A DNA stretch of 64,000 nucleotides, from the IMG/VR virus record IMGVR_UViG_3300033068_001924, positions 3,305-67,304 of that record; one strand, written 5' to 3'. Both the position numbers and the translations under genes were made by a program. The notes beneath the pieces are model-generated. The model was not told the DNA's origin. It did not search any database and saw only the letters and a list, made by a program, of their open reading frames with translations. This document shows positions 6,053 through 56,508 of this stretch, one piece after another. Each line of letters opens with the position of its first letter. The first letter of the stretch is position 1. The stretch is from a virus (lineage: Duplodnaviria > Caudoviricetes).

Positions 6053-7222
6053 ATGTTCAATAGCGACTTTTTCCCCGTTCGTCTCAGCGAGGGCGGTGTG
6101 CCGGGCTATGCCGAGGGCGGCCTTGCCTCGGCGGCTGACGCGGTCTCGGAGGCCGGGCGCGGCGGCGACGACGTCATCATCCACATCAACCGCGACGAGC
6201 TGGATGAGCTGGTCAAGGAATGGGGCGAGCCGACGATCAACCCCGAGACCGGCTACCCGGAGTTTTTCCTTAAAGGTTTGCGTGACTGGTTCTCCGACAA
6301 CCAATGGGCCAACATCGCCCTGCCGATCGCCACCGGCGTGCTGGCGCCGGGCCTTGGCTCGGCCATCGGCTCGACGCTCGGCGGCGCCGTTGGCGCTGAC
6401 CTGTCGCCGGCATGGACCGGCGCGCTCGGCAATGGCCTGCTCGGCGCCGGGCTCGGCGCCCTCACCGGCGGCGGCACCGGCGCCCTGCTCGGCGGCCTCT
6501 CTGGCGGCCTGACCGGCTATATGTCTTCGCCCGGCGACAGCCTGCCGACCGTCGCCAAGGGTGGCATGGGACCGGACATTCCGGCCGGATTCACGCCGCC
6601 GTCAGGGTCGTCCTCGTCGGGCTTCTCGCTCGGCGACACCGGCGCGGCGTTGAAGGCAGCGGTGCCGATTCTGGCGCTGGCCGGCGGCCTTGGCGGTCTC
6701 GGCAAGGGCAGCAGCAAGCCGGCGACCTCCTCTATCGAGCAGCAGGAGGCGGAAGCGCGCAACAATGAGCCGCTGTCGCGGGTCAGGATGACCAAGCAGC
6801 GCCGCCCCATGCCGCGTGATCTCCGCAATTACGGCCGCAGCGGCTCGAAGGAATATGCGTTCTTTTCCGGCAACGCGCTGCCCGAGGAATATGCCGATGG
6901 CGGCGACGTGGCGCCGGCGTTCGCCGAGGATTTGTCGCCGGGCGGCTACACCAGCGCGATGACCGAGGATGGCCATACCGGGAATCAGGCGCCGGGCGAT
7001 GGCCGTGCCGACACCATGCCGGCCTTGGTCTCCAACAACGAGTACATTTTCGATGCCGAGAGTGTCGCCCTGCTCGGCAATGGCTCGCCCGATGCCGGCG
7101 CCGAGGCGCTCGACGAATTCCGGCGCAATCTGCGCAAGCACAAGGGCCGGGCGCTGGCGCGAGGAGAGATCAGTCCTGACGCCCTCGCCCCCGAGCAATA
7201 TCTGTCGCGAGGTGATTTCTGA
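6053..7222 (+). CDS. Internal virion/ejection protein 1
   Basis: TINPETGYPEFF and GDGRAD..PA.VSNNEYIFDA..VALLGNGS motifs, Gly-rich hydrophobic segments, YAEGG and YADGG motifs. Confidence 0.65.
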   Translation: MFNSDFFPVRLSEGGVPGYAEGGLASAADAVSEAGRGGDDVIIHINRDELDELVKEWGEPTINPETGYPEFFLKGLRDWFSDNQWANIALPIATGVLAPGLGSAIGSTLGGAVGADLSPAWTGALGNGLLGAGLGALTGGGTGALLGGLSGGLTGYMSSPGDSLPTVAKGGMGPDIPAGFTPPSGSSSSGFSLGDTGAALKAAVPILALAGGLGGLGKGSSKPATSSIEQQEAEARNNEPLSRVRMTKQRRPMPRDLRNYGRSGSKEYAFFSGNALPEEYADGGDVAPAFAEDLSPGGYTSAMTEDGHTGNQAPGDGRADTMPALVSNNEYIFDAESVALLGNGSPDAGAEALDEFRRNLRKHKGRALARGEISPDALAPEQYLSRGDF

Positions 7223-8436
7223 TGGCGAGCGACCTTTCCGGCTTCTTGTTTCAGGGCACGCCGCCGCCCAACGTCAATTCGACCGGCCAGACCACGACGT
7301 CGGTGCCGAAATATATTCAGGACTACAACAAGCGCCTGCTGTCACAGGCGACCGCCGTCGGTAACCAGAAATACACCACCTATGGCGGCCAGCGCTTGGC
7401 CGATGTCGATCCGGCTCTGACCCAGAGCTGGCAGACCGCGATGGGCGCCTCGGGTTCGTACAAGCCGGCCTTCGGGCAGGCGACCGGGCAGCTCGACAAG
7501 GCGGCCGGCGGCGACGCTTCCGGTGCGGCGGCGCCCTACCTTTCGACGGCTGCCGGGATGTCGGCCACCGGCGCCGCCGCACCGGCGCTCAACATGGCGA
7601 TGGGGTCGACGGCCGACAGTGTCGGGCAGTATATGTCGCCCTACATCAGCAATGTCATCGACACCATCCAGCAGCGCGGCACGCAGAACCTGCAGGACAA
7701 TCTGCTGCCGGCGATGGGCGATGATTTCATCCGCAGCGGGCAGCTCAATTCGACGCGCCATCAGGCTGCCGCCGGCAAGGCGATGGCCGACACCCAGCGC
7801 GCCGTCACCGACGCCACCTCGCAGGCGCTCAACACCGGCTACACCACGGCGCTGGGGGCGGCTCAGAACGATCTCTCGCGTTACGCCAGCGTCGGCCAGA
7901 CGCAGGGCAACCTGACCAATGCCGAACAGCAGAATCAGGCCAATATCGGTCAGATGGCCGGCAACTTCAATTCGGTCGATACCCGCAACGCGCTCGATAC
8001 CGCGAGCGGCTATCTCACCGCCGGCAAGTCGACGCAGGCGGCTGGGTTGACCGAGGCGGCGGCGCAGGAGGCGGTCGGGCGCGGCCAGATGGGCGAGGAG
8101 CAGAAGAACCTCGATCTCGCCTATGGCGATTTCACCGACCAGCGCGATTACGACCGCAACCAGACCGCATGGCAGGCCGATCTGCTCAAGGGCCAGCCGT
8201 CGATGGGCGGCACCGTCTATACTTCGGAGAACAAGCCGCTTCCGGGGGCGCAGTATGGGTCGAGCGGGCTATCGCAGATCGCCGGTGCAGCGACCGGCGC
8301 GGCGGCGCTCAATGACCTGATCAAGAAGGCCAAGGGCGGCTATATCTCGACGCCCCGGCGCGGTTATGAAAGCAGCGGCCAGCGCCCACCACCGATACGG
8401 GTGCCTCGGCGCCAGAGTCAGAGGGAATACGCATAA
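7222..8436 (+). CDS. Internal virion/ejection protein 2
   Basis: Gln/Ala/Thr-rich pilot-protein-like composition; overlaps neighbours by 1 nt. Confidence 0.65.
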   Translation: MASDLSGFLFQGTPPPNVNSTGQTTTSVPKYIQDYNKRLLSQATAVGNQKYTTYGGQRLADVDPALTQSWQTAMGASGSYKPAFGQATGQLDKAAGGDASGAAAPYLSTAAGMSATGAAAPALNMAMGSTADSVGQYMSPYISNVIDTIQQRGTQNLQDNLLPAMGDDFIRSGQLNSTRHQAAAGKAMADTQRAVTDATSQALNTGYTTALGAAQNDLSRYASVGQTQGNLTNAEQQNQANIGQMAGNFNSVDTRNALDTASGYLTAGKSTQAAGLTEAAAQEAVGRGQMGEEQKNLDLAYGDFTDQRDYDRNQTAWQADLLKGQPSMGGTVYTSENKPLPGAQYGSSGLSQIAGAATGAAALNDLIKKAKGGYISTPRRGYESSGQRPPPIRVPRRQSQREYA

Positions 8437-10151
8437 TGGCCGGCGCGTTCAACGACATGGAGAGCCTGCTGGCGACGCGCCGGGCGCGCGAGACCGAGGC
8501 TTACAATTCGGCTCAGGCAGCAGCCGATCAGGCTTCGGCAGCGTTTGCCACACCGCGCCGCTCAAAGGCGTTGCTGGCGATGTCGGCCGGCTTTCTCAAG
8601 CCGACCCGTTCCGGCAGCTTTGGTGAAAGTCTCGGCTCGGCGCTCGAAGGTTATGCCACCGCCTCGGGCCTCGACGACGAGCGCGAACTCGACCGCAACA
8701 GCAAGCTCGCCGCCATCGCCGCCGGCAAAGCCCGGCTCATGCAGGATCGCGCCATCGGCGATTTTAATTCCGGCATGGCCCGCTTCGAGCTGCCCGGCCT
8801 CGCGCTCAAGCACCGCTACGACATGGAGGACCTCAGCGACGACGGCTCTGACGTTCCGGTTTTCCGGCCGCAGCTGCCGGGTCAGCGCAGCGACGTGCCG
8901 CCGGGCGGTGCGCCGACGCTGGCGCCGGTGGTGCCCGGGGCTCCCGCTCCGGCACCGCAGAATCCCAACACCAATGTCGGCTCGATCGCCCCGGTCGCAG
9001 AACAGGCGGTTGCCATGGCCGGCGATCCGGTGCAGCCCGGTGACGACGCGGTCAACTTCCCGCAGACCAATGGCCAATTGGCCAGCCTCGGCACGGTGGC
9101 CTCCGACGCTCCCCAGCCCGGCCTGCCGGCTGATCCCGCCGCGACAGCGCCGCCACCGTCGCCTCCAGCGCCGCAGCAGATGGCACAGGCCGCGCCGGCG
9201 GCCGTCCAGCAGCCGCAGCAGCCACCCGTGCCGACCTTGGCCGAGCAGCGCCTGCAATGGGCGCAGCAGGTCCGTGATGCGGCGATGAGCGACCCGGCCA
9301 AATGGGCGCGGCGGCCGAAGAACCGCGCCGCGCTGGAGATGGCCAACAAGACCATCGCCGAGGCGCAGCAGCAGCAGAGCCGCGACGTCCAGAACCAGCT
9401 CCGGTCGCTGGAGATCGACCTTAAGGAAGATCGGGTCAAGCGCCTTGAGACGCCGATGCTGGTCGAGCAGCGCAAGGCCGACATGAAGCGCATGGAGGAG
9501 GTCAATGCCGGGGCGCGGGAGGCGGCCAACACGCGGCAGGCGATCGACTCGACCGAGGCCGCCCGCCAGCGGCTGGTCGGCGGCGAGGCATGGCGTACCG
9601 GCTCGAACATCCAGTCGCGGTTTATCAACGGCCTGACCGAACTGCTCGTGGATGGTGGCGAAGGTGCGCTCAAGCAGGCTGTCGGCAGCCTTACTGCCGG
9701 GGTGATCAAGGCGCAGAACACCGGCGCGATCTCGGATGGTGAGCGCCGCACCTTCGAGGCGCAGGTGCCGGGCACCCAGATGGGGCCGAATTCGGCGCGC
9801 TGGGTGCTCGACATGGGCAGGGCTATTGCCTCGCGGGCCGAGGAGCAGGCGAATTTCTACCGCCGCTACATGACCACCTATGGCACCACCCTCGGTGCCG
9901 ACGATCAGTGGACGAAATTCATCAATGAAAACCCGCTCATCGGCATGGGCATGAAGGGTGAGCCGGTGGTCAAGGCCGAGCGTGCCGGGCAATGGCAGGA
10001 ATACCTCAAGCCACCGCAATATCTGATTGAGAGCGGGCGTTTTCCTCAGGCCGGCAGTGCCCCGCGCGGCATCACCCGGGAGGAGTATGACCGGCTCCCA
10101 TCGGGGGCCTCCTATCCCGGTCCCGATGGCTTGATCAGGCGGAAACAATAA
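8436..10151 (+). CDS. Internal virion/ejection protein 3
   Basis: Pro/Gln-rich linker with helical ends; coupled to neighbours. Confidence 0.6.
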   Translation: MAGAFNDMESLLATRRARETEAYNSAQAAADQASAAFATPRRSKALLAMSAGFLKPTRSGSFGESLGSALEGYATASGLDDERELDRNSKLAAIAAGKARLMQDRAIGDFNSGMARFELPGLALKHRYDMEDLSDDGSDVPVFRPQLPGQRSDVPPGGAPTLAPVVPGAPAPAPQNPNTNVGSIAPVAEQAVAMAGDPVQPGDDAVNFPQTNGQLASLGTVASDAPQPGLPADPAATAPPPSPPAPQQMAQAAPAAVQQPQQPPVPTLAEQRLQWAQQVRDAAMSDPAKWARRPKNRAALEMANKTIAEAQQQQSRDVQNQLRSLEIDLKEDRVKRLETPMLVEQRKADMKRMEEVNAGAREAANTRQAIDSTEAARQRLVGGEAWRTGSNIQSRFINGLTELLVDGGEGALKQAVGSLTAGVIKAQNTGAISDGERRTFEAQVPGTQMGPNSARWVLDMGRAIASRAEEQANFYRRYMTTYGTTLGADDQWTKFINENPLIGMGMKGEPVVKAERAGQWQEYLKPPQYLIESGRFPQAGSAPRGITREEYDRLPSGASYPGPDGLIRRKQ

Positions 10152-13021
10152 TGGCCGAATGGTGGGAAAACGATCCGGTCATCGCCGATACGGCGCCGCC
10201 GCTGGCTGACGGGCCGCAGGTCGCCGGCCCCGGCGGCGGCAATTGGTGGGACGCCGACCCGGTCATCGCCAAGTTCGATCCCGGGCGCTTCAAGATCGAG
10301 GACGGGCGGCAGTTCGAGCGCAGCATGACCGTGCCGCTCGCCGCCGAAGGTGACCGCCGCGCCAAGGGCAATCGCCGCCGCGTCGGGGCAGGAGGTGCCG
10401 CCGCTCTCGGCTTCGGCAATTGGGCTGGTATGGGCTTCGCCGACGAGGCGGTCGCCGGGCTGCAGACCGGCGCCGATTACCTGCTCGGCGATCTCGAAGA
10501 GGGTGAGAGCCTGCCGACCCGCTATAGCCGGCGCAAGAAGCGTTACGAGCAGCTCTCCGACGATGCATGGCAGGATCATCCCGGCGCCTATGCCGCCGGC
10601 GCCATCCCGGGCTTTGTCGCCTCGGCGGTGCTGACCCCGACCCTGCGCGCCTCGCAGGTTCTCAATGCCAGCGGCAAATTACTGGCAGGGGCACCGCGCG
10701 CTGCGCTGGAACGCCTCGCGATCCGACGCGCCGCCACCGAGGGTGCGCTCTCGACCGGCGCTACCACCGGCGCGCTCTGGGGCGGGATTTCCGGTTTCGG
10801 TGAGGGGGATTCGCTCGATGAGCGGCTGGCCAATGCCGGGCTCGGGCTCGGGCTTGGCGGCATCGGTGGTGGCATCCTCGGCAAGGTCGCCGACGATGTC
10901 GGCTCACGGATGTCGCGTCGGGCCGTGCAGGAAATTGCCGACGAGGGGGTTGCCAATGCGGCCCAGCGTGAGGCTGGTCAACATGGCATTACCCTGACCC
11001 GGGGGCAGGCCTCCGGCGATGTCGCGACGCAGGCGACCGAGAATTCGATGCGTACCGCCGGCTATGGTGATCCTGCTACCCGCATCGCGCAGGAGGCGAC
11101 CGAGCGCCAGCGCGGCCAGATGGCGGCGGCCAGTGACGACATCAACACCCGGATCGCCGGTGTCGACCCATCGACCGGCCTGCCGCGTGCGGTGATCAAC
11201 CAGCCCGACGAGGCCGGGACCCTGTTGAAGGGGGCAATTGAGCGCGAGGCGGTCGCCGGGCAGGCGGCGCTCGATGCCGCCAATGCCGGCGACGTCAATA
11301 CCGCCAAGGCGGTCGATGATCTGATTCAGCAGCAGCTCGGCAAGGGCCAGCAGCTGGTCGACAGCGATGTCTCCACCGGCGCCCGGGTTAAAGAGGGCAT
11401 TGCCCGCGCCAAGGAAGACAGTGGCAATATCCGCGATGCTGCCTACAAGGCCGCCGCCGATCTGCCGACTTCCCTGCGTCGCGAGGGCATCGAGGGCATG
11501 TCGGATCGCATCCGGCACAATATCACCTATAACCGCGAGCGCCCGGCGGTGGTGACCAAGGACACCACCAATGCGCTCGAAGCGCTGCGGATGATCGACG
11601 ACGTCGCGGAATTTCGTGGCCCCAACAATCTCGCCGACCCAGCCGGGATGCCGAGGGCCGAGGACATCGTGGCGATCTCGCCGGCCGGCATCGAGAATGT
11701 GCGCCAGCGCCTCGTGCAGCTGGCCCGCGCCGCCAACGGCAAGGCCCGCACCGGCGATTCCTCCGACGCCGTCGCGATGCGGGCGATCATGGAGGAATTC
11801 GACAACCAGCTTGAGCAGATTCGGATCAAGGGCCTGTTCGACGGCGACGATCGCTGGTTCGAAGCCTACAAGGCGGCGCGCGCCCTGCACAGCCAGCACA
11901 TGCGCAAGTTCCGCCCCGATGACGCGCTGAAATCAGCGATGCGCGATATCGTCGAGAAGGACGCCACGCCGGAACAGGTCGCCAATTATCTCTATGGTGG
12001 CACCAAGCTGGGTCAGTCGCGCACCTCGGCCCATCTTGCCGAGCATCTGAAAGGGGTGTTGGGCAAGGATTCCGAGGAATTTGCGGCGATCAAGCAGCGC
12101 GGCTGGCAGCGCCTGCTCGCTGTCGATGGCCAGATCGACCATGACAGCGCCTTAAAGGTCGCCAAGCGCATCGACGAGTTTTTGACGGACAAGGGCTCGA
12201 CGCTGGCCAAGACGCTCTATGACGACGCCGAGCGCCAGACCATGGCGCGCTACGCCCAAGGTCTGCGCAACATGTCGACCTCGAAGCGCACGCCCGGCCC
12301 GGCGCTTGAACAGATGTTGAAGATCGGCGGCAAGAATGCACAGCCGACCGAGCTGGCCCGCATGCTGGTCGGCGGCTCCGGCAACAAGGTGCTGCAGAAC
12401 GGCGATTCCGGTCGCCTCGTCGAGAGCCTGAAAGAGGTCTTTGGCGCTGATTCCGACGAGGTCCGCGCCGTCGCGCAAGCGGTCTGGCGCCAGCTCACCG
12501 ATGTGCCTGAGGGCACCACGCCGAAAGGGGCGCAGCAGATGGCGACGGCGATCAGCGCGCTCGTCAACGGCCCCGGCCGACCGACCGCCGAGAAGCTGTT
12601 TTCCTTTGCTCCGGGTCTGCTCGACGAGATGGGCGCCTATGCCAACACCCTGCGCCGGATCGCCGGATCGGCCGACGCCAAGAACCCGCCCAACACCGGC
12701 TCGCGCGTCTCCAAGCTGGTCAGCGAGCAGGGCCGGATGATCCTTGGCGCCCTCGGCATGGTCTCTGGCGGCGTCGATGGCGGCGTCAGTGCCTTCCTCT
12801 CGGCGCAGGGCGCGAGCATGGTCAGGGACCACGTCGCGGCCAGCAACGCCCGCCGGCTGTTCGGTGGCAGCAAGGCGCATTCGCTGTCACGCGGCATCGA
12901 GGACGGCTCTGGCGAGCTGGCGCTCGGCCTTGCCCGCAAGGGCCGCCGCCTGCCCGGCCCGGCGGCTGGCCAGATCGGCTATTTCGGCACCGGCGTCGCG
13001 GCCGATGAGGATGAGCGTTGA
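10151..13021 (+). CDS. Large internal virion/ejection protein 4
   Basis: 956 aa, N-terminal WW..DPV repeats, Ala-rich helical; last gene of the virion operon. Confidence 0.65.
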   Translation: MAEWWENDPVIADTAPPLADGPQVAGPGGGNWWDADPVIAKFDPGRFKIEDGRQFERSMTVPLAAEGDRRAKGNRRRVGAGGAAALGFGNWAGMGFADEAVAGLQTGADYLLGDLEEGESLPTRYSRRKKRYEQLSDDAWQDHPGAYAAGAIPGFVASAVLTPTLRASQVLNASGKLLAGAPRAALERLAIRRAATEGALSTGATTGALWGGISGFGEGDSLDERLANAGLGLGLGGIGGGILGKVADDVGSRMSRRAVQEIADEGVANAAQREAGQHGITLTRGQASGDVATQATENSMRTAGYGDPATRIAQEATERQRGQMAAASDDINTRIAGVDPSTGLPRAVINQPDEAGTLLKGAIEREAVAGQAALDAANAGDVNTAKAVDDLIQQQLGKGQQLVDSDVSTGARVKEGIARAKEDSGNIRDAAYKAAADLPTSLRREGIEGMSDRIRHNITYNRERPAVVTKDTTNALEALRMIDDVAEFRGPNNLADPAGMPRAEDIVAISPAGIENVRQRLVQLARAANGKARTGDSSDAVAMRAIMEEFDNQLEQIRIKGLFDGDDRWFEAYKAARALHSQHMRKFRPDDALKSAMRDIVEKDATPEQVANYLYGGTKLGQSRTSAHLAEHLKGVLGKDSEEFAAIKQRGWQRLLAVDGQIDHDSALKVAKRIDEFLTDKGSTLAKTLYDDAERQTMARYAQGLRNMSTSKRTPGPALEQMLKIGGKNAQPTELARMLVGGSGNKVLQNGDSGRLVESLKEVFGADSDEVRAVAQAVWRQLTDVPEGTTPKGAQQMATAISALVNGPGRPTAEKLFSFAPGLLDEMGAYANTLRRIAGSADAKNPPNTGSRVSKLVSEQGRMILGALGMVSGGVDGGVSAFLSAQGASMVRDHVAASNARRLFGGSKAHSLSRGIEDGSGELALGLARKGRRLPGPAAGQIGYFGTGVAADEDER

Positions 13022-45267: not shown

Positions 45268-48114
45268 GTGGCACCGATCAAAAAACTGGCGAGCAAGGCC
45301 CTCGACCTCATCGGCCCGCGTCATGCGGCGCTTGAGGAGGCACGCCAGAATGCTGTTCGTCTGCTCGGCCTGCCGGAGGACAACACTGCGCTCGACCGCG
45401 CCGCCGCGCTCGGCTTTAACAAGCTGGTCTATCACTCCTCGTTGGAGGAGCTGGACAGGTTCGAGCCGCGCGGCAAGTTTATGGGGCACAAGGGTGTGAC
45501 CGGCATCCACATGACCGACAAGCCCGAGGTCGCCAATGCCTACCTCGATCGCTTTGGTGATTATCGCTATGACGGCACCAAGTTCCAAAAGAACGTCATG
45601 CCGCTGCTGCTGAATGACGAGGGGTTCATCCCGCGCTCGATTCATGGCTATCCGCCGCCGAGGGGTGGGCCGACGGGTGCCCCGGTGCCGGAGGGGTTCG
45701 AGAACCCCTTTCGTCGGCAGGGTGCTGAGGGGGCAACTTTCACCGATGCCATCAAGATCAAAAAGGGTGTCGTCGAGCACGGCGATGGCAAGAAATCCCT
45801 GCGCTACAAGGAATACGTCACCGACAACCCGGCCCGGGTGCGGTCGCGATTTGCTGCCTTCGACCCCGCCCGCATCAATGAACGCGATCTCCTCGCCTCC
45901 GGCGCTGGTGTTGCAGTAGGCGCAGGCGCGGCAGCTGAGGGCTACCAGAGCGCGCCCGGCTACGCCGGCGGCGGCGCGGTGCGCAAACTGGCTGGCAAGC
46001 TCACGGCTGTTTCCCGTGAAACACCGGGCAAGCCATCCTCGTTGCTGATCCCCGGTCGTGGCCGGGTCGAGGCAGCACCGATCAAGGAGCTGGAGGATGC
46101 CGCTTCGGGCTACATGACCAGCCGGGGCGTTCCCGATGCCCACAGGATCGAGGCCTTCCCTGAGTTTGATGAGGAGAAGGCGGCCAAGATCGCCGAGGCC
46201 TTCGAGCGCATGAAGCACAACCCCAACGATCCGGCGGTCAGGCGCTCCTATGACGCCATGATCGAGGAGACGCTGGCGCAGTACAAGGCGCTGGAAGATG
46301 CTGGCATCGATTACCGTTTTCTCAAGGACGGCGAGGCCGACCCTTATGCGCTGTCGCCGGCGCTCGGCTATGCCGACCTGATCGAGAATGGCAAGTTGCA
46401 CGTGTTTCCGACCGAGCAGGGTTTCGGCACCCTCAATGCGGTCGACGACAACCCGCTGTTGAAAAAGGTCGGCCGCATCGGTGACCTCAAGGACGCCACC
46501 GCCAACGACGCCTTTCGCGCCGTGCATGACTCGTTTGGCCACTTTGCCCCGGGCAACCCGTTCTTCCGCCACAAGGGCGAGGACCGGGCATGGTATGCCC
46601 ATTCCAAGATGTATTCCGACGATGCTTTGCCGGCGATGTCGACCGAGACCCGGGGGCAGAACAGCTGGCTCAATTTCGGCCCCTATGCCGAGCACAACCG
46701 CACTGCCTTGGGTGGCGATACGGTGTTTGCTGACCAGAAGATCGGCATCCTGCCTCAATGGGCCTACAAGGGCTACGCCAAGGGCGGCCAGACCCGCAAC
46801 TGGCGCGTCTCAGCCAATGTCGAGGATCGCCGCCCGCCGGACGACCCGACCCGGTTCGCGCCATTGCCGGATCACGGCTCCGGCGCGGTCGAGAGCTGGC
46901 TGCGCCGCAACGCCAGCTGGCTCTGGGATGACGGTGCCGCCCACGCCAAGGGCGGTGAGCGCTCCGATCCGCGACGGGCCATCCCGGGGCATTTCATGAC
47001 CGTCCCCATGGAGCCCGATTTGTCACGCGGGGTCTACGAATCCGATGACGATCTCGCCGATCTGCCGATTCGGATGCCGACCGGGATGCCGCCGCGCCAC
47101 TTCGCTGCTGGCGGCTACCAGAGCGCCGACGCCATGCGCGACAACGACCTGATCGAGGATGCCACCTTCGTCGGCAAGGCATCGCGCATCGGCCGCCGCA
47201 GTCTCGACGATCTCGGGCGGCTGCTCCGGCGCGGCGACGCCCTCCCAATTGACGATCAGCGCCAGATTTGGCGCGAAGATGGTGTCGGCGTCACCCGTGA
47301 CGGCCATCCGATGGCCGAGATCAGCGATCGCGACGCCCGGCTCAAGGAATTGCCGGATTTCGGCCCGCAGCGCGACGAGGCGCCCGATCTCAACAGCTAC
47401 CTGATCCGCAAGGAAAAATGGGAGAAGGCGGGCGGCAAGGTGCCGGAGAACATGGTGCTCGGTGACGCCCTCGACCACCCTGAGCTGTACGACAATTACC
47501 CGGCGCTCAAGAGCCTGCCGCTCCGCTGGCGCAGCGATATGCCGGATAACTATGGCGGCCAGATGGACCTGATGAACGGCATGCCGCACACCATGCACCT
47601 CAACCGCCGCCGGGCGCCGGATGATATCCTCTCGACGGCGCTGCACGAGGGCCAGCATGGCGTGCAGGGGATTGAGGGCTGGGCCAATGGCACCGCCCCG
47701 GAAACGGTCGCCGATCTGATTTGGCAGCAGAAGGATATCGAGCAACGGGCGCTGAACGCGCAGGCGGTCAAGGACCTGCTCGAAGCCGGGTTGGCGCCGG
47801 CGGATATCCTCAAGCACGACGCCATGGGTCACATCCCGCTGGTCGACCGCAAGCAGGTGATCGAACTGGCCGAAATGTTGCCGGCCGACCAGATCGAGGG
47901 GCTGGTGCAATCCTCGCGCCGGCTCGCTCGTGTCTACGACAGCCCGTTCAATGTCTACCAGCGCCAGATCGGCGAGCGGCAGGCGCGCAATACTCAAGCC
48001 CGGCAGTCACTGACGCCGGAGGAGCGGCAGGCCAAGTTCTGGCGCGACACCGAGGATCGCCCCGGCGAGGCGATCATTACCGGCGGCAAGTACGGGGATT
48101 TTACATTTGACTGA
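45268..48114 (+). CDS. Large polyvalent protein: ART-like domain, unknown domain, LPD23-like HExxH domain
   Basis: YHSS..F...GI..TD.P.VA..Y (ART-PolyVal-like); HDSFGH; LDHPELY..YP.L...HEGQH..Q.IEG...GE..ARN.Q.R. Confidence 0.7.
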   Translation: MAPIKKLASKALDLIGPRHAALEEARQNAVRLLGLPEDNTALDRAAALGFNKLVYHSSLEELDRFEPRGKFMGHKGVTGIHMTDKPEVANAYLDRFGDYRYDGTKFQKNVMPLLLNDEGFIPRSIHGYPPPRGGPTGAPVPEGFENPFRRQGAEGATFTDAIKIKKGVVEHGDGKKSLRYKEYVTDNPARVRSRFAAFDPARINERDLLASGAGVAVGAGAAAEGYQSAPGYAGGGAVRKLAGKLTAVSRETPGKPSSLLIPGRGRVEAAPIKELEDAASGYMTSRGVPDAHRIEAFPEFDEEKAAKIAEAFERMKHNPNDPAVRRSYDAMIEETLAQYKALEDAGIDYRFLKDGEADPYALSPALGYADLIENGKLHVFPTEQGFGTLNAVDDNPLLKKVGRIGDLKDATANDAFRAVHDSFGHFAPGNPFFRHKGEDRAWYAHSKMYSDDALPAMSTETRGQNSWLNFGPYAEHNRTALGGDTVFADQKIGILPQWAYKGYAKGGQTRNWRVSANVEDRRPPDDPTRFAPLPDHGSGAVESWLRRNASWLWDDGAAHAKGGERSDPRRAIPGHFMTVPMEPDLSRGVYESDDDLADLPIRMPTGMPPRHFAAGGYQSADAMRDNDLIEDATFVGKASRIGRRSLDDLGRLLRRGDALPIDDQRQIWREDGVGVTRDGHPMAEISDRDARLKELPDFGPQRDEAPDLNSYLIRKEKWEKAGGKVPENMVLGDALDHPELYDNYPALKSLPLRWRSDMPDNYGGQMDLMNGMPHTMHLNRRRAPDDILSTALHEGQHGVQGIEGWANGTAPETVADLIWQQKDIEQRALNAQAVKDLLEAGLAPADILKHDAMGHIPLVDRKQVIELAEMLPADQIEGLVQSSRRLARVYDSPFNVYQRQIGERQARNTQARQSLTPEERQAKFWRDTEDRPGEAIITGGKYGDFTFD

Positions 48115-48307
48115 GCGCGATAAAATGATCGAGCAAGTCGGGATTGCGCAGCCATGCACCCGCCGGCAGCAGCAGCTCGCAGTCACCGCGCACCTCGCGG
48201 ATCATCATCTGGCCCTCGGGCGTCAGGAAATACTCCGAGCGCCCGCCGACACGCTCGATCACCTTCGGATTCTCGCGGGTATCGGCTGCCGTGATGTCAT
48301 AAACCAT
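48101..48307 (-). CDS. Small antisense hypothetical protein (68 aa)
   Basis: GAGGA RBS 7 nt before ATG; fills the gap between two + strand genes. Confidence 0.4.
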   Translation of the reverse strand: MVYDITAADTRENPKVIERVGGRSEYFLTPEGQMMIREVRGDCELLLPAGAWLRNPDLLDHFIALSQM

Positions 48308-48323
48308 GGGGGATTCCTCTGAG

Positions 48324-49895
48324 ATGGCCAAGGCAGGATACACCTCTTACGCCGAAGGGGGAAGCGCCGAGCGCGAGCTGGGTGAGCGGCTGGTGCCGTC
48401 AACCTCGCGCAAGCTGCGTTACGGCATGCGCTATGGCGGCGTCGACCCGCTGCTGATCGCCGATCGCCGCGCCGCCGACGGTTACACTGACATCAATCGG
48501 CCGCTGTCGATGATCCCGGCCAAACTTGAACCATCGAGCATCACACCAACATTGCGCCAGCGCACGGCCCGTGCGTTCTTGGGCGACAACCCGACCTCGG
48601 CGGCGCGGCAAATCCTCAACCTTGCCATCGGTCAGGATGAGGGGGTCGGGGAGCCCGGCCTGTCGCTGATAGACCTGTCGCCGGTCAATCCGTTCGACGT
48701 CGAAGAAGGCTATCGCGACAGCGGCCTCGTCGGGGCCTTTCTCGGGCTCGGTGCCGCCAAGGCCAAGAAGGGCTGGAAACCCGCCAAGCGGCTCGCTAGG
48801 CCGCTTCTCGGCTATGCCGGCGGCGGTGTCGTCAATAAGGCGGCGAAGATTCTCGCCAAGACCTTCGGTGACGATATCGCTGCGCCGGCGGTAAAAAAGG
48901 CCGATGCGCCGTTGTTCGATTACTCGCGCCTGCGTGAGGTGCCGGATGTGCCGCAGCATGACCTGCCGCGCTGGGTGCCGCCACGCGGTGTCTCGGAGCG
49001 TGTCGGCGATCTGCTCGACGACCGCAAGACGATCCGCAAGCTCGAAAGTGTCATCGATCGCGGTCTCGTCGGCAACGGCCCGGCATGGTACAACAACGAG
49101 CCGTTGCGCGAGGAATTTATCGCCGAATTCGGGCGTGAGGCCGGCGAAGCCAATTTCCGCCGCTATATGGACTACGTCGCTGGCGCCTCGCCGCGCTCCG
49201 ATATCGGCACCAATGTCCGTAACGCCTCGTTTTATTACGGCCTCGACAAGCGCGGCGAGCCGCTGCCGGATATCAACCCGAAGCCCTACGGCCACATGGC
49301 CCAGAAAACCCACCGCAGCAATGCCGAGCAGATTCGGGCTGACGACGGCTGGGATGTCATGGCCAATCCGAAACCGGCCTCGTTCGTCGAGAATCTGGTC
49401 GGCAACCAGAGCCCCGGCACGATGGACGCGCACGCGCTGAAACTGCCGGCGATGCTGTCGGGCGATCCCCGTTTTCTCGCCACCGATTACCGCGTCAAGA
49501 ACAAGAAGACCGGCGAGTTCACCACCTTCAAGCCGCGCCAGATGTTCGAGAGCGGGGAACTCAGCATGAAGGAGGCGTTGCAACGTCCGGCCTTCTTCGA
49601 TGCCCAGCCTAATGCCAATGAATATGGCGCCCTTGAGGGGCTCTATCGTGATATCGGCCGCAAGAAAGGCGCCACGACAGCACAGACGCAGGCCTCGGGC
49701 TGGATCGCTGGCGGCGACATCACTGATCTCGGTTCGCCCGGCGACCCGTTTCTGAAAGTGTTCGAGGATCGCGTTCGTCTCACTGCCGACAAGACCGGCA
49801 AGACTCCGCAGGAGGTCCTGCGGGGGTTCATGCGCGGCAATGTCGACCTGCTCAAGAAGGGCGGCCGGGTGGGGTATGCTTCAAGCAGGTGTTGA
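48324..49895 (+). CDS. Polyvalent-type protein with putative HhH-glycosylase-like C-terminal domain
   Basis: WY...SPR.....N..NA...K..SF..N..GN....T.D.HA...Y...E...R......Q..Q...W pattern; start may be 48306. Confidence 0.55.
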   Translation: MAKAGYTSYAEGGSAERELGERLVPSTSRKLRYGMRYGGVDPLLIADRRAADGYTDINRPLSMIPAKLEPSSITPTLRQRTARAFLGDNPTSAARQILNLAIGQDEGVGEPGLSLIDLSPVNPFDVEEGYRDSGLVGAFLGLGAAKAKKGWKPAKRLARPLLGYAGGGVVNKAAKILAKTFGDDIAAPAVKKADAPLFDYSRLREVPDVPQHDLPRWVPPRGVSERVGDLLDDRKTIRKLESVIDRGLVGNGPAWYNNEPLREEFIAEFGREAGEANFRRYMDYVAGASPRSDIGTNVRNASFYYGLDKRGEPLPDINPKPYGHMAQKTHRSNAEQIRADDGWDVMANPKPASFVENLVGNQSPGTMDAHALKLPAMLSGDPRFLATDYRVKNKKTGEFTTFKPRQMFESGELSMKEALQRPAFFDAQPNANEYGALEGLYRDIGRKKGATTAQTQASGWIAGGDITDLGSPGDPFLKVFEDRVRLTADKTGKTPQEVLRGFMRGNVDLLKKGGRVGYASSRC

Positions 49896-50157
49896 ATTCG
49901 CGCTGCAGGGCGATCAGGGCGTTGGTGTAGGTGCCTTCGATCTTGCGGTAGGCGGGCCAGCCGCCTTGGGTGATCTCGACCTCCCAGCGCAGATCGGCGC
50001 GGCGCAGGATTTTGCCAACCGCCTGCCCTGAGCGTACCGCCGCCCAGATCACTCCGGCGGTGTCGCGCTCCATGGGGATACGTTCATAGATGATGTCGGG
50101 GTTGACTGCAGCGGCGCCGAGCGGCGGCAGGTCAGTCGAGCGCACCGGGCGGGTCAT
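49852..50157 (-). CDS. Hypothetical protein
   Basis: Last gene of the leftward cluster. Confidence 0.5.
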   Translation of the reverse strand: MTRPVRSTDLPPLGAAAVNPDIIYERIPMERDTAGVIWAAVRSGQAVGKILRRADLRWEVEITQGGWPAYRKIEGTYTNALIALQREFNTCLKHTPPGRPS

Positions 50158-50570
50158 GGGGACTTCTCAATGAAGCGCCGGCCAGACCTGAGCTGGCGTT
50201 CGGAGATGTGGATGATATCGCGCACCCGTGCTCCTGAGATACCGTATTGTGCGCCGATGGCTCTGAGTGTCAGACCTTCGGCGCGCAACCGCAGGATTTC
50301 ACAGGAGCGCCGGTTGAGCGGAATGGGTGCGGGTGGTCCGGCGACCTCATAGATGGAGCCCTCATATCGCAAGGGGATTTTATTGAGGGCCAAGGCCTCC
50401 CGAATCTCACATAATGATTTTCGTCCGAGGCCGGGGATCGTGAGAAGATCACGGGCGCTCCATCGTCTGAGCTGGCCGATGGTGGTGATGCCGGCAGATG
50501 CGAGGGTCCGGTTGCTGCGCACGCTCATCCTCAAGCGGGTGATGACGATGTCGTCGATCGTTTCGGTCAT
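50154..50570 (-). CDS. RNA polymerase alpha-CTD-like domain fused to a sigma70 region 4-like HTH
   Basis: L.MSVRS...L...GI..IG.L...DLL.IPGLG.KSL.EI.E.L; then L..R..EILRLR..G.TL..IG..YG.S..RVR.I. Confidence 0.8.
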   Translation of the reverse strand: MTETIDDIVITRLRMSVRSNRTLASAGITTIGQLRRWSARDLLTIPGLGRKSLCEIREALALNKIPLRYEGSIYEVAGPPAPIPLNRRSCEILRLRAEGLTLRAIGAQYGISGARVRDIIHISERQLRSGRRFIEKSP

Positions 50571-51298
50571 TTCGCCAGTACCTTTTGTGGTGGTCGCGCC
50601 GGCATCTCGCCGACATAATTGACCAGCACCGGCTCGATATAGATCGGCCGGGTCTTTTCCCAGTTCTCGCCATAGCGCTGCTCGCGGACGTGGCCGGCGC
50701 GCAGGTGCACCGGCATCGACCGCCCGGTCTTGCCGCTGCCGGCGATCTTGCCGTCGCGGGCGTAGACGGTGCCGACCCGGACCACGGTGTGGCGAGGCAC
50801 GGCGATACGGCCGGCGACGAGGCGCTTGGCGTTGAGGCGGTTCGGCTCGATCAGCTCCTTGGCGATCCCCCGGGTGTTGAGCATCATCAGGGCGCAGAAC
50901 GCCGCGAAAGCAGCATAGACGCCCTCATGCTTGTGCATGAAGCCGTCGACGCTGACGCCGTCGCCGGTAAAACTCAAGGTGGCGGCAGCCGGCGCGACGG
51001 CGCAGACGGCGCCGTGCAACACCGCCTGCCGCGCCTGCAACACCCCAGCGCTTTCCTGCAACAGCACGAAAGCCCGACCGACGCCGAGCGAGAACTCGAC
51101 CAGCAGTCGGGGATAGGGCAACCGGCAGACCCCGGCGGCAATCATCGCGGTGATGCTCTGGCCGACGGAGTCGCTCTGCATGACCGTATTGAGACTGTCA
51201 TCGACGACGTAATGCGGCACTGTCGCCATCTCGCGCAGCAGCGGATCGGGCGAGAATTCGAGCGCCTGATGCAGCTTGGTGGCGATATACTTGGTCAT
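50567..51298 (-). CDS. Conserved phage hypothetical protein
   Basis: C-terminal P.H.R.GH.R.Q.YG......I.P..V motif. Confidence 0.65.
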   Translation of the reverse strand: MTKYIATKLHQALEFSPDPLLREMATVPHYVVDDSLNTVMQSDSVGQSITAMIAAGVCRLPYPRLLVEFSLGVGRAFVLLQESAGVLQARQAVLHGAVCAVAPAAATLSFTGDGVSVDGFMHKHEGVYAAFAAFCALMMLNTRGIAKELIEPNRLNAKRLVAGRIAVPRHTVVRVGTVYARDGKIAGSGKTGRSMPVHLRAGHVREQRYGENWEKTRPIYIEPVLVNYVGEMPARPPQKVLAK

Positions 51299-51501
51299 GG
51301 ACCCCTCTTCTCCCGCCAGCCGCGATCCGGGTCGTAATAGACCTCGCCACGATCTGCGCGCTCGGAGCAGGTCAGGCATAGCGCGGAATCATCGCCGAGG
51401 GCGACATGGTTGCAGATGTGGCAGCGGTTGAGGTTCTGGATGACCTCAACCGCCTTCTCGGATTCCTGTCGGAGGTAACGCACCAGCTTGCGAAAATTCA
51501 T
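51295..51501 (-). CDS. Small Zn-finger-like protein
   Basis: CHIC...CLTC; GAGG RBS. Confidence 0.5.
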   Translation of the reverse strand: MNFRKLVRYLRQESEKAVEVIQNLNRCHICNHVALGDDSALCLTCSERADRGEVYYDPDRGWREKRGP

Positions 51502-51505
51502 CGCC

Positions 51506-51778
51506 TCATCCCTTCCGGGTGGCGACGAACACCGCCGCAGCGCGCGTCCATGCCGACAGTCGGCGGCGCCCGCTCGACGGCGTGGCCTCGCGATAGCCGT
51601 CGAACCACGGCCCGCGAGCCTTGGTGCGGGCAAGCCCGGCCGCGTTGCTGCAGGTGCTGGAGGATGTCTCGGGGTCGCGGCAATGCTTCTGGGCCGCCTC
51701 CAGCGTGAGGCCGGTCTTGACGATAGCCTCCGGGTGGTTGGGGTCCTGATAGAAGCGGACGATCTCATAATCGGGCAT
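51506..51778 (-). CDS. Hypothetical protein
   Basis: YEIVRFY...GLTLE.AQ.HC.DPETSS...WFDGY motif. Confidence 0.6.
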   Translation of the reverse strand: MPDYEIVRFYQDPNHPEAIVKTGLTLEAAQKHCRDPETSSSTCSNAAGLARTKARGPWFDGYREATPSSGRRRLSAWTRAAAVFVATRKG

Positions 51779-51978
51779 CAGACGTACTCCACCTCGAAGC
51801 CGGCAGCCTCAAGGTTGTTGGCGATATCGCGGGCCGGTCGCCAGTCGGTGGTGAAATTGCTCGATACTCCCATCCAGTCCTCGACCGCGAAGTTGGTGTC
51901 AGCGAAGCTCTTGGCTTCATCCGAGACCGCCTTGATGGTCCAGACGGTGCCGTGGTTGGCGGCAGTGAAATCGGCCAT
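51778..51978 (-). CDS. Hypothetical protein
   Basis: GAGGGG RBS before ATG 51978. Confidence 0.6.
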   Translation of the reverse strand: MADFTAANHGTVWTIKAVSDEAKSFADTNFAVEDWMGVSSNFTTDWRPARDIANNLEAAGFEVEYV

Positions 51979-52002
51979 GGTGAATCCCCTCAAGGTTGGC
52001 TG

Positions 52003-52272
52003 TTACAGATAGTTGCCGCGAAACACCTTCACGCCTACCCCGGTCATGGACGTGATCTCACGAGCCTTTTTCTCGGCTTGCTCTTTGGCCCACCCGTTCC
52101 GGGTTTCATCTCCGCGCGGGTAGGGGTAACGGTAACTTTCATCGAAGCCGGCCTCTTTCAACTTAGCTCGGAGCGGCTCGCGTTTCTCGCGGCGCTCCCG
52201 TGATGTCAGTCCGCCAAAATACGGGAGGCCAACGCCCCAGAACTCTGTGATCTGGTGACTGGTGTTGAACAT
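52003..52272 (-). CDS. Hypothetical protein
   Basis: AAGGAG RBS; first gene of the leftward cluster. Confidence 0.6.
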   Translation of the reverse strand: MFNTSHQITEFWGVGLPYFGGLTSRERREKREPLRAKLKEAGFDESYRYPYPRGDETRNGWAKEQAEKKAREITSMTGVGVKVFRGNYL

Positions 52273-52315
52273 TGTCTCTCTCCTTTGCTTCGGCCTTGAG
52301 CCGGCTATGGCTGAA

Positions 52316-52385
52316 AGCATGCCACAACGACAGCCGCTGTCAACTGAATTTGTGGCTTGACGCCACAGATTAGTGCGTGTCTACT
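52316..52385. promoter_or_regulatory. Divergent promoter region with operator
   Basis: Minus-strand TTGACA (52338-52343); TGTGGC-TTGAC-GCCACA (52351-52367) contains a plus-strand TTGACG; extra half-site at 52321. Confidence 0.65.
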
Positions 52386-53634: not shown

Positions 53635-53638
53635 GCTG

Positions 53639-53673: not shown

Positions 53674-53697
53674 GCTCTCCATGCCGGGGAGCGCTAT

Positions 53698-56508
53698 TTG
53701 TCAGGCCTTCGCACCATCCTGCTCGAACGCTCGCCGCTGCTGCAGAAACAGCCGCCGACCGAGCGCGACCTGCTGAGTCAATACGCCCGTTTCGCCGCCG
53801 ACCCGGAGACCAAGCGCTTCGGCCTTGGTGGTGATGTCGAGGGCGGCGCCGATCAGGGCGTCGGCGGCATGTCGAATGACGGCAACCAGTCGAACGGCAC
53901 CGAATCCAACTCGTCCACGCTCGGCGAGGCGCTCGGCGATACCTCGAATGTCGGCCCCTCCAGTTTCGGCGCTGATCTTGGTGGTGTCACCGGCGGGGTC
54001 GATTACAATGGTGGATCGCCCGGGCGTGACGTTTCTGGTGGCCTCTCCGGCAATTATTCCGGCGGCGGTGGCAATTATGACCATGCCGGCGATGTCGGTT
54101 TCGACTCGTATGGGGGCGAGCTGGGCGGCATCACTGGCGGGGTGTCGTATAACGGCGCAGGTGATCCGTCGCAGGCCGGTGGCCAGTATAACGGCCCGTC
54201 CTCCGACAATTTTGGCATGCCCGGCGGCTCTTACAACGCTTCGGAATTCGGGGGCGATGGCAGTCCAAGTCTGGCCGATCTTGGCATCGGCTCGATCGGC
54301 AGTAACCCGCTTGGTGGCAGCTTCGCCGATTACGCCCCCGGGCCGCAGCAGAGTATGGCGACCGGCCTGACGACGGAAGATGAGGTCGCGCCGGAAACAC
54401 CGATCGAGAGCCTCGCTGCGACCTCGCTAATCGCCGCTGCGCCGCCGGTGATGGCGAGCACGCTCGGCACCCCGGAGATCGACCCGCGCACCGGCATGCC
54501 GGTCGGGCTGCCGAATGCCAGCACGCTGTTCTCCCTCGATCCCCGGGTCAAGGATTCGATTGCTCGCCCCGATGCCCGGGCGCTCGCCGCCATGGGCGTG
54601 ACCGAGAACATGCGGGCACTCGCCAAGGGCAATATCGCCGCCGCGCAGATGCCGATGGAAGTGGCGATGAACCGGGCGCTGGTCGGCTATGACCAGTTCA
54701 AGGGCGCCCGCCGCCCCGGCGTCGACCTCAATGACGTCACGACGCAGGTGATGGCGCCGAGCCAGTTCTCCGGCATGAACGTGCGCGGCAGGCAGAATAA
54801 CACCGGCATCGACAGGGCGATGGCGTTTGGCCGCTCGCACCCGGAATCCTATTCGACCGCCTATGGGGTCGCCAACGACATCCTGCAGGGGCGCGCTGCG
54901 CCGCTGACCGATGGCGCGCTCAACTTCGCCGGCTACGGCCAGCACGACAAAGTCACCGGGCCGAGCCAGAATTTTGCCGGCAATATCGCCTACAACAACA
55001 GCCCTGAGGCCGCAGCGGCCTATGCCAGCCGCGCCACCTCCAGCGTCTCGCCTGACGACAATCCGGCGTTCTCGACCCCGGCGCGCGCTCCCGACAAGCC
55101 GATCTCATCGCTGGAGAATTTCACGCCCGAGGAGCCGGCACAGGTCGCGATCACGGAGGAGGATGTCGACCGCCCCACGATGAACGCGGCGACGGCACTC
55201 TCGAACTACGCCAGCTCGCTGTTCGGTGGCTATTCGGCCTATAGTCCCTACGACTATTCCGGCCTCAATGTCGACAAGAGCGGCATGCGCGATCCGGTCA
55301 ACACTCCGTCGCCGGCCCCAGCCCTGTCGCCAGCGACCCAGCGCACCCCCGACAGCCCGTGGAGCATGGGCGATTATATCGGCGCCGCTTTCGGCATCTC
55401 GCCGGCCTTCGGCAAGGATTACAACCAGCAGGTCCCCGACATCCCCAACCAAGCCGCCTTCGGGCCACAGGTGACGGCGCCGTCGGAATTGGAGAAATCC
55501 GGCATCGGCCCGATTAACGGCGTCCCGGTCGCTGCTGATCGCCAACCCGGGGTTGGTTCGCGCATTGCCGACACCCTGTCGGCATGGGGGCAGTCGCTGT
55601 TTGGTCAGGATCGTGCGGCGGCGCAATCGACCGCGATCGATCCGAGCCGGTTCGATGGCACCTTCGGCTACCAGAGCTATGCCCAGCCGGGCGGCCGGGG
55701 CGGTTTCAGCGTTGGCCCCGATCAGCGCGGCCCCGGCATGGCGAGCGAGATCACCGGCTCGCTCGGCCCGCGCAGCCCGGTCTCGGCCTCTTCTCGCTTC
55801 ACCTCGGATGATCTGCCGGCCTTGGCGCCGCAGCCGCACGAGGTCGACGCGCCGCGCCCCGGCGCCTTGGTGGCGGGCGATGGCGTCGTGCCGGGGGCAA
55901 TCCCGGATGCGCCCGGTCGGGCGGCACCGTCCCGCTCGACGGCACCGTCGCGCTCGACCAGCCCGGCGCGCGGCACACAGGCGATCACTGGCACCGAGGT
56001 TTATGGCCCGACCATGCCCGGCATGTTGCCCGGTGAAACCACCTACCCGACCCATGGCGTCATCAACCAACCCTCGACATGGGCGCATGAGAAGATTGCC
56101 GAGCGTGCCGCCCCCGGTGTTGCCGGCGCGATGGTGCCCGGGCTTGGGTTGGCCAGCCTCGCCTCCGGCCTGTTCGGCGGCCCGACCCTTGGCGGCGTAT
56201 TTGCCAATTCGGCCCCCGGTATGGACCTCTCGCTGGGTCAGCAGACCCGCGCCGACGGCACCCCGTATGAGGGCGGCCGCAGTGACCGCCCGGCTTTCTC
56301 GGGTGGGTTGGCGGCCCCCGAGGGGGCCAAGGACGACAGCACCAAGGACACCACCAAGCCGAAGGCCAAGAAAAAGGCCGCCGCCACTGGCCGGCGCTAT
56401 CTCGGCCCTGACCGCAACCCCAAGACCTACGGCTACCGGCCCGGGCGCCGCTATTTCGAGGGCGCCTTCGCCTCGGGCGGCCCTGTCACCATTAGGACCG
56501 CCCGATGA
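53698..56508 (+). CDS. Low-complexity virion protein with a cell-wall hydrolase (SleB/Hydrolase_2-like) domain
   Basis: E...VAMNR...QVMAPSQFS...A..IL.G...TDGALNF at ~54600-54930; TTG start uncertain; ATGA overlap with the portal gene. Confidence 0.6.
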   Translation: MSGLRTILLERSPLLQKQPPTERDLLSQYARFAADPETKRFGLGGDVEGGADQGVGGMSNDGNQSNGTESNSSTLGEALGDTSNVGPSSFGADLGGVTGGVDYNGGSPGRDVSGGLSGNYSGGGGNYDHAGDVGFDSYGGELGGITGGVSYNGAGDPSQAGGQYNGPSSDNFGMPGGSYNASEFGGDGSPSLADLGIGSIGSNPLGGSFADYAPGPQQSMATGLTTEDEVAPETPIESLAATSLIAAAPPVMASTLGTPEIDPRTGMPVGLPNASTLFSLDPRVKDSIARPDARALAAMGVTENMRALAKGNIAAAQMPMEVAMNRALVGYDQFKGARRPGVDLNDVTTQVMAPSQFSGMNVRGRQNNTGIDRAMAFGRSHPESYSTAYGVANDILQGRAAPLTDGALNFAGYGQHDKVTGPSQNFAGNIAYNNSPEAAAAYASRATSSVSPDDNPAFSTPARAPDKPISSLENFTPEEPAQVAITEEDVDRPTMNAATALSNYASSLFGGYSAYSPYDYSGLNVDKSGMRDPVNTPSPAPALSPATQRTPDSPWSMGDYIGAAFGISPAFGKDYNQQVPDIPNQAAFGPQVTAPSELEKSGIGPINGVPVAADRQPGVGSRIADTLSAWGQSLFGQDRAAAQSTAIDPSRFDGTFGYQSYAQPGGRGGFSVGPDQRGPGMASEITGSLGPRSPVSASSRFTSDDLPALAPQPHEVDAPRPGALVAGDGVVPGAIPDAPGRAAPSRSTAPSRSTSPARGTQAITGTEVYGPTMPGMLPGETTYPTHGVINQPSTWAHEKIAERAAPGVAGAMVPGLGLASLASGLFGGPTLGGVFANSAPGMDLSLGQQTRADGTPYEGGRSDRPAFSGGLAAPEGAKDDSTKDTTKPKAKKKAAATGRRYLGPDRNPKTYGYRPGRRYFEGAFASGGPVTIRTAR

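Follow-up and report, generated by a model that had tools for sequence, protein, structure and literature searches.

A conserved A-x-G-G peptide in ejection and polyvalent proteins of an uncultured short-tailed phage and its possible role as a maturation joint

Why five otherwise unrelated proteins of one phage should carry copies of the same short peptide is the question raised by a 64-kb stretch of viral DNA (bases 3305-67304 of the 67.3-kb IMG/VR virus record IMGVR_UViG_3300033068_001924), which was analysed as a whole and is called the window here. The phage is uncultured and short-tailed, and the full form of the peptide is [Y/F/K/R/H/M]-A-x-G-G-x-[V/I]. Its carriers are two proteins of the ejection module (g389 and g404), the polyvalent protein g948, and the proteins g529 and g936 (Table 1). 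A model that had read the letters of this DNA without database searches (the sequence-only reading) had listed 12 pentapeptides of this type, and all 12 translate exactly at the coordinates in Table 1, on the + strand and in frame with the five long open reading frames (ORFs). The motif is real, widespread, and conserved. Regarding its function, it may be a maturation joint, with the cut falling between the bulky residue and Ala and possibly made by a host protease; this interpretation is preferred here with somewhat less than even confidence.

Frequency of the motif and position of its carriers

Motif frequencies in the window were evaluated on the 80-gene proteome (19,580 amino acids) with within-protein shuffles that preserve composition. 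YA.GG appears six times in the six-frame translation of the window, always within g389, g948, and g529, against 0.50 copies expected in the proteome, and none of 2000 shuffles reached six. Likewise, GYA.GG was observed four times (0.06 expected) and [YFH]A.GG 10 times (1.34 expected). A.GG alone is at expectation (19 observed, 19.7 expected), so the signal lies in the residue preceding Ala and not in Gly richness. Enrichment over the Gly-rich background, which had been named beforehand as a check, was found: the five carriers contain nine copies of [YFH]A.GG against 0.44 expected (0 of 5000 shuffles, with the Gly-rich composition kept), and the remaining 16,374 amino acids of the proteome contain one. 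The sequence-only reading was also right that several copies are followed by x-V, since every one of the five carriers has a single copy of the strict form [YFKRHM]A.GG.[VIL], and a non-structural ORF has another (six copies against 0.68 expected). Chance as the source of the motif was ruled out by these shuffle statistics. The sole strict copy outside the carriers is FAAGGFV, at residue 84 of a 299-residue ORF of the early region without a family match (30206-31105, + strand), and it fits the ~0.7 copies expected by chance.

Moreover, the carriers, which had been described as lying 40-50 kb apart, belong to one late module; the apparent distance is a rotation effect because the record opened inside the structural module. 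Identity to the Caulobacter podophages RLK, RW, KcrB, and GB2A amounts to 41-60% in the portal, terminase, and capsid proteins, and the Roseobacter CRP-901/902 and Pelagibacter HTVC023P-type phages are more remote kin. By synteny with RLK, the portal, capsid, tail, and ejection proteins run on across the record ends as one continuous late operon, in which the head-tail and tail genes resume at the start of the record. Considering this synteny, the match of g404 to phrog_4287, and the literature on polyvalent proteins, the five carriers are probably present in the particle and ejected. There is good support for the proposal that proteins of the virion-internal or ejected class, although otherwise unrelated, have a signal in common. 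On the other hand, the labels ART-like, LPD23-like, and SleB, which the sequence-only reading had given to domains of the carriers, obtained no support from sequence searches in Pfam, NCBIfam, PHROGs, and PDB, which gave almost no family names for the five proteins. Megablast, run with the g948-g529 region on 50,697 phage records, had no match.

The motif in related proteins: linkers, termini and module borders

g948 has at least two unrelated domains in one chain, which are recombined in many architectures, and in this sense it is a polyvalent protein. Its late-module position between terminase and portal suggests that it may be enclosed in the virion and enter the host along with the DNA. 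The AlphaFold2 model presents confident domains at residues 241-504 and ~680-905, a disordered stretch at 505-633, and a poorly modelled N-terminal part (1-231). The middle domain (241-504) has 7345 relatives in a library of 1.84 billion proteins, mostly in proteins of 1000-3400 residues (maximum 3484 amino acids), and in the ESM Atlas it falls among unnamed viral clusters only. The best 149 of these 7345 relatives form the set of polyvalent homologues. In this set, [YFHWM]A.GG reaches 224 copies where 25 are expected, Ala is preceded by Y, F, K, or R, and Val stands at +5 in 221 of 447 A.GG sites. The consensus is G-[YFKR]-A-[DEG]-G-G-x-[VI]-[DE], with no conservation further out, so what is shared is a short linear motif, not a domain.

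The copies of g948 stand at changes in the predicted structure or within the disordered stretch. The predicted local distance difference test score (pLDDT) climbs from ~40 to >80 at residue 241, next to YAGGGAV, and drops from 97 to 50 at YAKGGQT. The first of these sites reads YAGGGAVRKL in the homologue P0122, YAEGGIVSKL in P0124, and KAGGGLVNKI in P0129. Past the end of the middle domain (conserved ...DQKxGLxPxW), 65 of 148 homologous domains have a motif no more than 30 residues further on, and in 47 of these 65 the distance is at most 10. The FAAGG site is also present in homologues (YAAGGFV in P0122, YAPGGMV in P0123, and FAAGGQV in P0127), in all of them before a conserved D-L-[IV]-E-D-x-x-F-x-G. 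Furthermore, two motif copies exactly bound a disordered insert of ~104 residues (508-611; window 46789-47100, + strand), which is present in P0123 and missing in the closest homologue, P0122, where the two flanking copies are fused into one.

The C-terminal domain of g948 carries HEGQH within a conserved LHExxHxxQxxEG block. Pfam gave no family for the whole protein at E 0.01 and none for its C-terminal part at E 5, and Foldseek had no match at E 0.001 with either the whole model or the C-terminal domain. VIA returned zincin matches for this domain (PprI, Z 6.4; VgrG2b, 5.7; SPRTN, 4.9; Wss1, 4.8), all below the reliable level of the tool, which weakly suggests a zincin-like fold for the HExxH domain.

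The DUF7178 module of g529 is found free-standing in the locus L005, between the likely terminase and portal ORFs, and 17 of the 149 polyvalent proteins contain it as a cassette whose place differs between them. In P0136 (KAGGGAV, 1704) and P0131 (KAGGGPV, 264) it opens at a motif right behind a middle domain of the g948 type. In six polyvalent proteins it ends with a motif variant (KATGGAV, KKRGGSV, RKDGGSV, YADGGSV, FATGGDV, and FAEGGTV); hence the degenerate LKKGGRV, which closes the module in g529, is a true motif copy. The conservation at domain borders that the sequence-only reading had named as a check in homologues is therefore seen on both sides of the g948 middle domain and of the DUF7178 module, and its picture of cassettes holds, with motif-bracketed modules reshuffled between genes and phages.

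The g936 family is smaller, with three homologues. All four members share an N-terminal K-F-G-L-G-G-D-V, in which K39, G42, G44, G45, D46, and V47 are invariant, and P0271 has a second copy (FAKGGKV) slightly 5' of it. Three of the four also retain a copy at the C-terminus (FASGG in g936, YAQGG in P0272, and YRDGG in P0273), which P0271 lacks. No match, whether to SleB or to any other family, was obtained in Pfam, NCBIfam, or PDB for g936, its central segment, or the three homologues. The central segment of P0273 differs from that of g936 (window 54600-55000, alignment columns 370-500), and the N- and C-terminal parts still align; judging from this alignment, it looks like a swapped central module relative to the other members of the family. 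Neither version of the segment matched a cell-wall hydrolase profile.

In the ejection module, g389 is the first of the four genes after the tail-fibre genes and has 409 homologues. Both of its motifs rank among the best-conserved columns in an alignment of 118 homologues. At the first, position 19 is Y, F, or M, and A20, L24, G22, and G23 are kept in 101, 106, 112, and 112 sequences, respectively. At the second, G283 is invariant, and A281 and G284 are kept in 113 and 111 sequences; the RLK protein gp066c reads MARGGYA at this position, ~85 residues ahead of its C-terminus. Homologues of g404, 66 of which adjoin homologues of g389, mostly lack a C-terminal tail, and those with a tail present a motif at the joint, such as FASGGDV, YARGGFV, KASGGPV, or FADGGPL.

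Considering 79 related viral loci (1.15 Mb), 73 copies of the strict motif were counted where 8.3 are expected. Tail and capsid homologues, from which it is nearly missing, have 0.011 copies per 1000 amino acids, versus 0.3-0.5 in the homologues of g389 and g404 and the ORFs just 3' of them. In total, the motif was found in hundreds of metagenomic polyvalent and ejection proteins, and its positions are disordered linkers, the vicinity of termini, and the borders of modules that were gained, lost, or re-fused exactly there. Ten of the 12 window sites are conserved in homologues (HAKGG at 46942 and the N-terminal YAEGG of g529 at 48348 lie outside this comparison). Successive copies are separated by either 8-72 or at least 113 amino acids, with no intermediate gaps, which fits whole domains between copies. 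A literature search on the motif strings found no published description of it.

Known cuts and rival explanations

A cut at such a peptide has been localised in the tape measure protein pb2 of T5, which is cleaved after R1127 into pb2* and pb2C according to mass spectrometry (Linares et al. 2023, PMC10038345). In the T5 record AY543070, R1127 is followed by AEGGMM, and the leftover fragment has 92 residues, the published size of pb2C. The chance that the cut falls beside one of the two A.GG sites of pb2 is ~2/1219 positions. R/AEGGMM (the slash marks the cut) fits the motif residue by residue (bulky, A, x, G, G, x, hydrophobic), and as in the carriers, the site lies in a linker ahead of a C-terminal module of a protein that exits via the tail. 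The carriers present a peptide of the same kind, with one strict copy in each, and in exposed linkers, as indicated by the pLDDT breaks at residues 232 and 503 of g948, its disordered stretch at 505-633, and the module borders in homologues. The difference is that T5 has a single copy in a siphophage tail protein, whereas here 12 copies are distributed over five podophage proteins, several of them at the extreme ends.

The tape measure protein gpH of lambda is processed to gpH* and gpHC with the loss of ~14 kDa from its Gly-rich C-terminal region, and both the site and the catalyst have been called unknown (PMC12617516). Like the carriers, gpH has motif copies in its C-terminal region, FATGGFT at 733 and YATGGYV at 779. 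A computed cut at 733 would give 79.8 + 12.5 kDa, compatible with the reported loss, although this agreement is a matter of consistency and not proof. The homologue search with the gpH C-terminus returned near-identical E. coli prophage copies only, and it is uninformative on tape measure diversity. Residues 325-345 of g389 (window 7025-7090, + strand), LVSNNEYIFDAESVALLGNGS, align with the GEFVF segment of lambda gpH, IVHRGEFVFTKEATSRIGVGN (hhalign E 0.035, weak). Both stretches come after a motif copy, which hints that the C-terminal module of g389 and the tape measure C-terminal region may be related. The tape measure protein of JBD30 has FASGGHI at 1019 and HATGGQI at 1081, both in its last 140 residues, and the cut predicted by its authors (R1066, unmapped) is not at a motif copy.

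With regard to leaders, the podophage ejection protein gp7 of P22 loses 20 N-terminal residues to the host enzyme OpdA at E20/KGGKGG (record annotation). g389, g529, and g936, in which a motif lies 15-41 residues from the N-terminus, recall this short leader beside Gly-Gly. The likeness is loose, as KGGKGG differs from A-x-G-G-x-V.

Short codes are also known from the internal head proteins of T4 and phiKZ, where the head proteases gp21 (L/I-x-E) and gp175 (S/A/G-x-E) cut at maturation. Unlike these codes, which have another sequence and are read by a phage head protease, the motif occurs in a phage in which no such protease was found between portal and capsid. A capsid targeting sequence of the T4 type, i.e., a single N-terminal tag, was rejected because the copies are multiple, internal, and C-terminal, and occur in tail-lumen proteins as well, and the search for a head protease gene had no result.

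Iyer, Burroughs, Anand, de Souza, and Aravind (2017, PMC5512222) described the polyvalent proteins encoded by phages and conjugative elements and proposed that these are processed into units by zincin (MPTase) domains. Like them, g948 and the DUF7178 module of g529 belong to shuffled multi-domain proteins among late genes. The differences are that the motif is not tied to the HExxH domain and that it reaches ejection and tape measure proteins that are not polyvalent. A term search of that text found neither glycine nor linker, and no junction motif was found described in it. As for the modular cargo-delivery system suggested for this phage, the exchange of modules stands, and the concept is essentially the published polyvalent-protein idea.

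Regarding these cases, we infer that the motif could be a short linear recognition peptide in exposed linkers or near the ends of proteins that traverse the phage DNA channel, namely podophage ejection proteins, polyvalent effector proteins, and the tape measure proteins of long-tailed phages. Following the T5 pb2 model, the chain would be cut between the bulky residue and Ala. Such cuts would trim the short leaders of g389, g529, and g936 and the tails of g404, g529, and g936; in g948 and g529 they would also part the modules from one another, either while the particle is assembled or upon delivery. Since the phage shows no head protease, cutting would fall to a host enzyme, to the HExxH domain of g948, or to the chain itself; for the T5 tail-protein cut, a part played by the host was reported long ago (Zweig and Cummings 1973, cited in PMC10038345). 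What favours a processing joint is the T5 precedent, the placement in linkers, spacing on the scale of domains, and terminal copies that resemble leaders and tails.

Several observations speak against a cut. No protease for the motif was found in the window, including the portal-capsid block searched for a head protease, and T5 offers the single mapped cut at a peptide of this kind. The g948-type HExxH domain is present in 18 of 88 motif-bearing proteins and in 15 of 61 motif-free ones (p = 0.55), and its role as a cis protease travelling with the motif was rejected for this lack of co-occurrence. Many polyvalent proteins are motif-free; these include the remoter relatives of the middle domain and a polyvalent protein of 2772 residues from Pag-Yong1, a cultured Planktothrix phage, so the motif is lineage-specific. 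Furthermore, some relatives of g389 begin with M-Y-[YF]-A-x-G-G and have no leader to trim, 41 of 120 have the C-terminus Y-[M/L]-x-G-G-x-x, and tandem copies stand 8-18 residues apart at C-termini.

These terminal copies, at which a cut would free almost nothing, are better accounted for by the main rival explanation, a docking or assembly handle. The peptide would be bound, not cut, by a common partner, which could be a surface of the channel or portal, a further internal protein, or a component of the host envelope encountered once ejection has taken place. Proteins on their way out through the tail would be recruited or put in order by this binding, and the T5 cut would be a secondary event in an exposed loop. 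Tandem copies could then confer avidity, and proteins that start with the motif pose no difficulty. The C-terminal enrichment (30 copies against 6.8 expected, and 18 against 5.0), the strong conservation in stand-alone proteins without a module to release, and the confinement of the motif to the ejected class of virion proteins point in the same direction. However, tape measure proteins reside in the tail lumen and podophage ejection proteins in the head and portal, without a known common receptor; many copies lie between domains deep within proteins of 1000-3000 residues; and the sole experimental datum at a motif peptide is a cut. A handle that is not cut seems rather unlikely, and the two roles are compatible, as a targeting peptide can also be cut. 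The sequence-only reading had considered a capsid-loading or ejection tag. The capsid-loading part is a poor fit because the motif is also present in tape measure proteins of the tail lumen, and a more general docking role remains a candidate.

It could also be argued that the motif is a passive hinge or recombination seam, a flexible Gly-Gly joint kept by cassette exchange without specific recognition. Modules are indeed gained, lost, and re-fused exactly at the motif, as the g948 insert missing in P0122 illustrates, tails of g404 relatives are joined on at it, and the DUF7178 module keeps it on both sides in 17 architectures. The codons are uniform too, with GCC for Ala in nine of 10 window copies and mostly GGC for Gly. 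Nevertheless, the shared DNA amounts to only ~11 bases, near the expectation from codon bias, for which reason a DNA-level recombination signal was rejected. A seam also fails to explain the conservation in single-module proteins or why selection in very distant phages should maintain a bulky residue at -1, Ala at 0, and Val or Ile at +5, and it is considered improbable.

Finally, bacteriocin leaders and the polyproteins of adenovirus and asfarvirus are known to be processed at di-Gly sites, and the sequence-only reading had suggested a protease site of this type. The invariant Gly-Gly pair agrees with a peptidase of the C39, adenain, or JAB type that would cleave directly behind it. The precedent does not, since the mapped T5 cut lies four residues upstream, before Ala. 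The conserved Val or Ile two residues past Gly-Gly and the bulky residue before Ala are foreign to such sites, and no cysteine or JAB peptidase family match was obtained in the carriers or the other window proteins searched (some small ORFs lie outside this search). A classical di-Gly site is accordingly very unlikely, and a joint cut before Ala is retained as the tentative preference.

Gene neighbourhood and meaning for tailed phages

The coordinates of the carriers, their motif copies, and the neighbouring features are collected in Table 1. The window has a G+C content of ~64%; the record has no end repeats over its 67.3 kb, and its completeness is estimated at 77%.

Table 1. Features of the window: late genes, carriers, and motif copies in order of position
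Feature	Position	Strand	Remarks
Tail fibre gene	2264	+	Tail genes near record start
Ejection module (g389, g404, g571, g956)	6053-13021	+	Four genes 3' of tail-fibre genes
g389	6053-7222	+	Ejection-module protein; Gly-zipper membrane segment (Pfam hint); syntenic with RLK gp066c
YAEGGLA	6107-6127	+	g389 residues 19-25, behind 18-residue leader
YADGGDV	6890-6910	+	g389 residues 280-286, ahead of conserved C-terminal module
g404	7222-8436	+	DNA ejection protein; phrog_4287 'DNA ejection protein', E 1.5e-09
KAKGGYI	8326-8346	+	g404 residues 369-375, start of 36-residue basic C-terminal tail
Terminase	39525	+	Single 513-residue ORF
Stretch of ~15 kb without counterpart in RLK	Between terminase and portal	+	Contains g948, g529, g936
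g948	45268-48114	+	Polyvalent protein, 948 amino acids; between terminase and portal
YAGGGAV	45961-45981	+	g948 residues 232-238, just 5' of middle domain
YAKGGQT	46774-46794	+	g948 residues 503-509, immediately behind middle domain
HAKGG	46942-46956	+	g948 residues 559-563, within disordered insert; weak instance (without x-V)
FAAGG	47101-47115	+	g948 residues 612-616, closes insert ahead of C-terminal domain
g529	48306-49895	+	N-terminal module (1-169) and DUF7178 module (~170-515); Pfam DUF7178, E 3.1e-06
YAEGG	48348-48362	+	g529 residues 15-19, behind 14-residue leader; seen in sequence only
YAGGGVV	48813-48833	+	g529 residues 170-176, opens DUF7178 module
LKKGGRV (degenerate)	49851-49871	+	g529 residues 516-522, closes DUF7178 module, 14 residues before stop
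g936	53698-56508	+	Gly/Ser/Pro-rich protein; immediately 5' of portal gene
FGLGGDV (variant)	53818-53838	+	g936 residues 41-47
FASGGPV	56467-56487	+	g936 residues 924-930, 13 residues before stop
Portal gene	56505	+	Directly 3' of g936
GroES-like co-chaperonin gene	59534-60031	+	Pfam Cpn10, E 8.3e-07 (above cut-off); phrog_3188
Likely scaffold gene	Between GroES-like gene and capsid gene	+
Capsid gene	62380	+	Last in window

Other features of the late module were noted. The GroES-like gene, just 3' of the portal gene, is 52% identical to the RLK gene at the equivalent position. In the RLK record (L004, 25119-27922), the large terminase subunit is annotated as two coding sequences (CDSs) with a CDS for an S-adenosylmethionine-dependent methyltransferase in between. 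Among the small genes between terminase and g948, a gene at 42146-42655 (+ strand) encodes a 169-residue protein with three to four consecutive helix-turn-helix segments (matches to HTH_23, HTH_7, HTH_31, and HTH_3). Between g529 and g936, the + strand module is split by a block of minus-strand ORFs without an assigned function (49852-52320, including ORFs of 102, 138, 270, 157, and 105 amino acids).

In a broader sense, the motif could be a seven-residue cut code, read by a conserved and perhaps host-encoded protease, that matures every class of protein leaving a tailed phage through the DNA channel, although a code of such generality is rather doubtful. If this were true, effector cassettes would be freely movable between tape measure, ejection, and polyvalent carriers, as they would share the code. 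For lambda and T5, the literature openly calls it unknown how, and by what, the tape measure protein is cleaved (PMC12617516), and the processing of polyvalent proteins into units has stood as a prediction since 2017; a shared, recognisable peptide makes both questions testable. The motif predicts exact new N-termini, A-x-G-G..., in many phages and points to a common, perhaps host, protease or binding partner. Moreover, with its help, sequence alone would suffice to mark out the cargo cassettes of uncultured phages.

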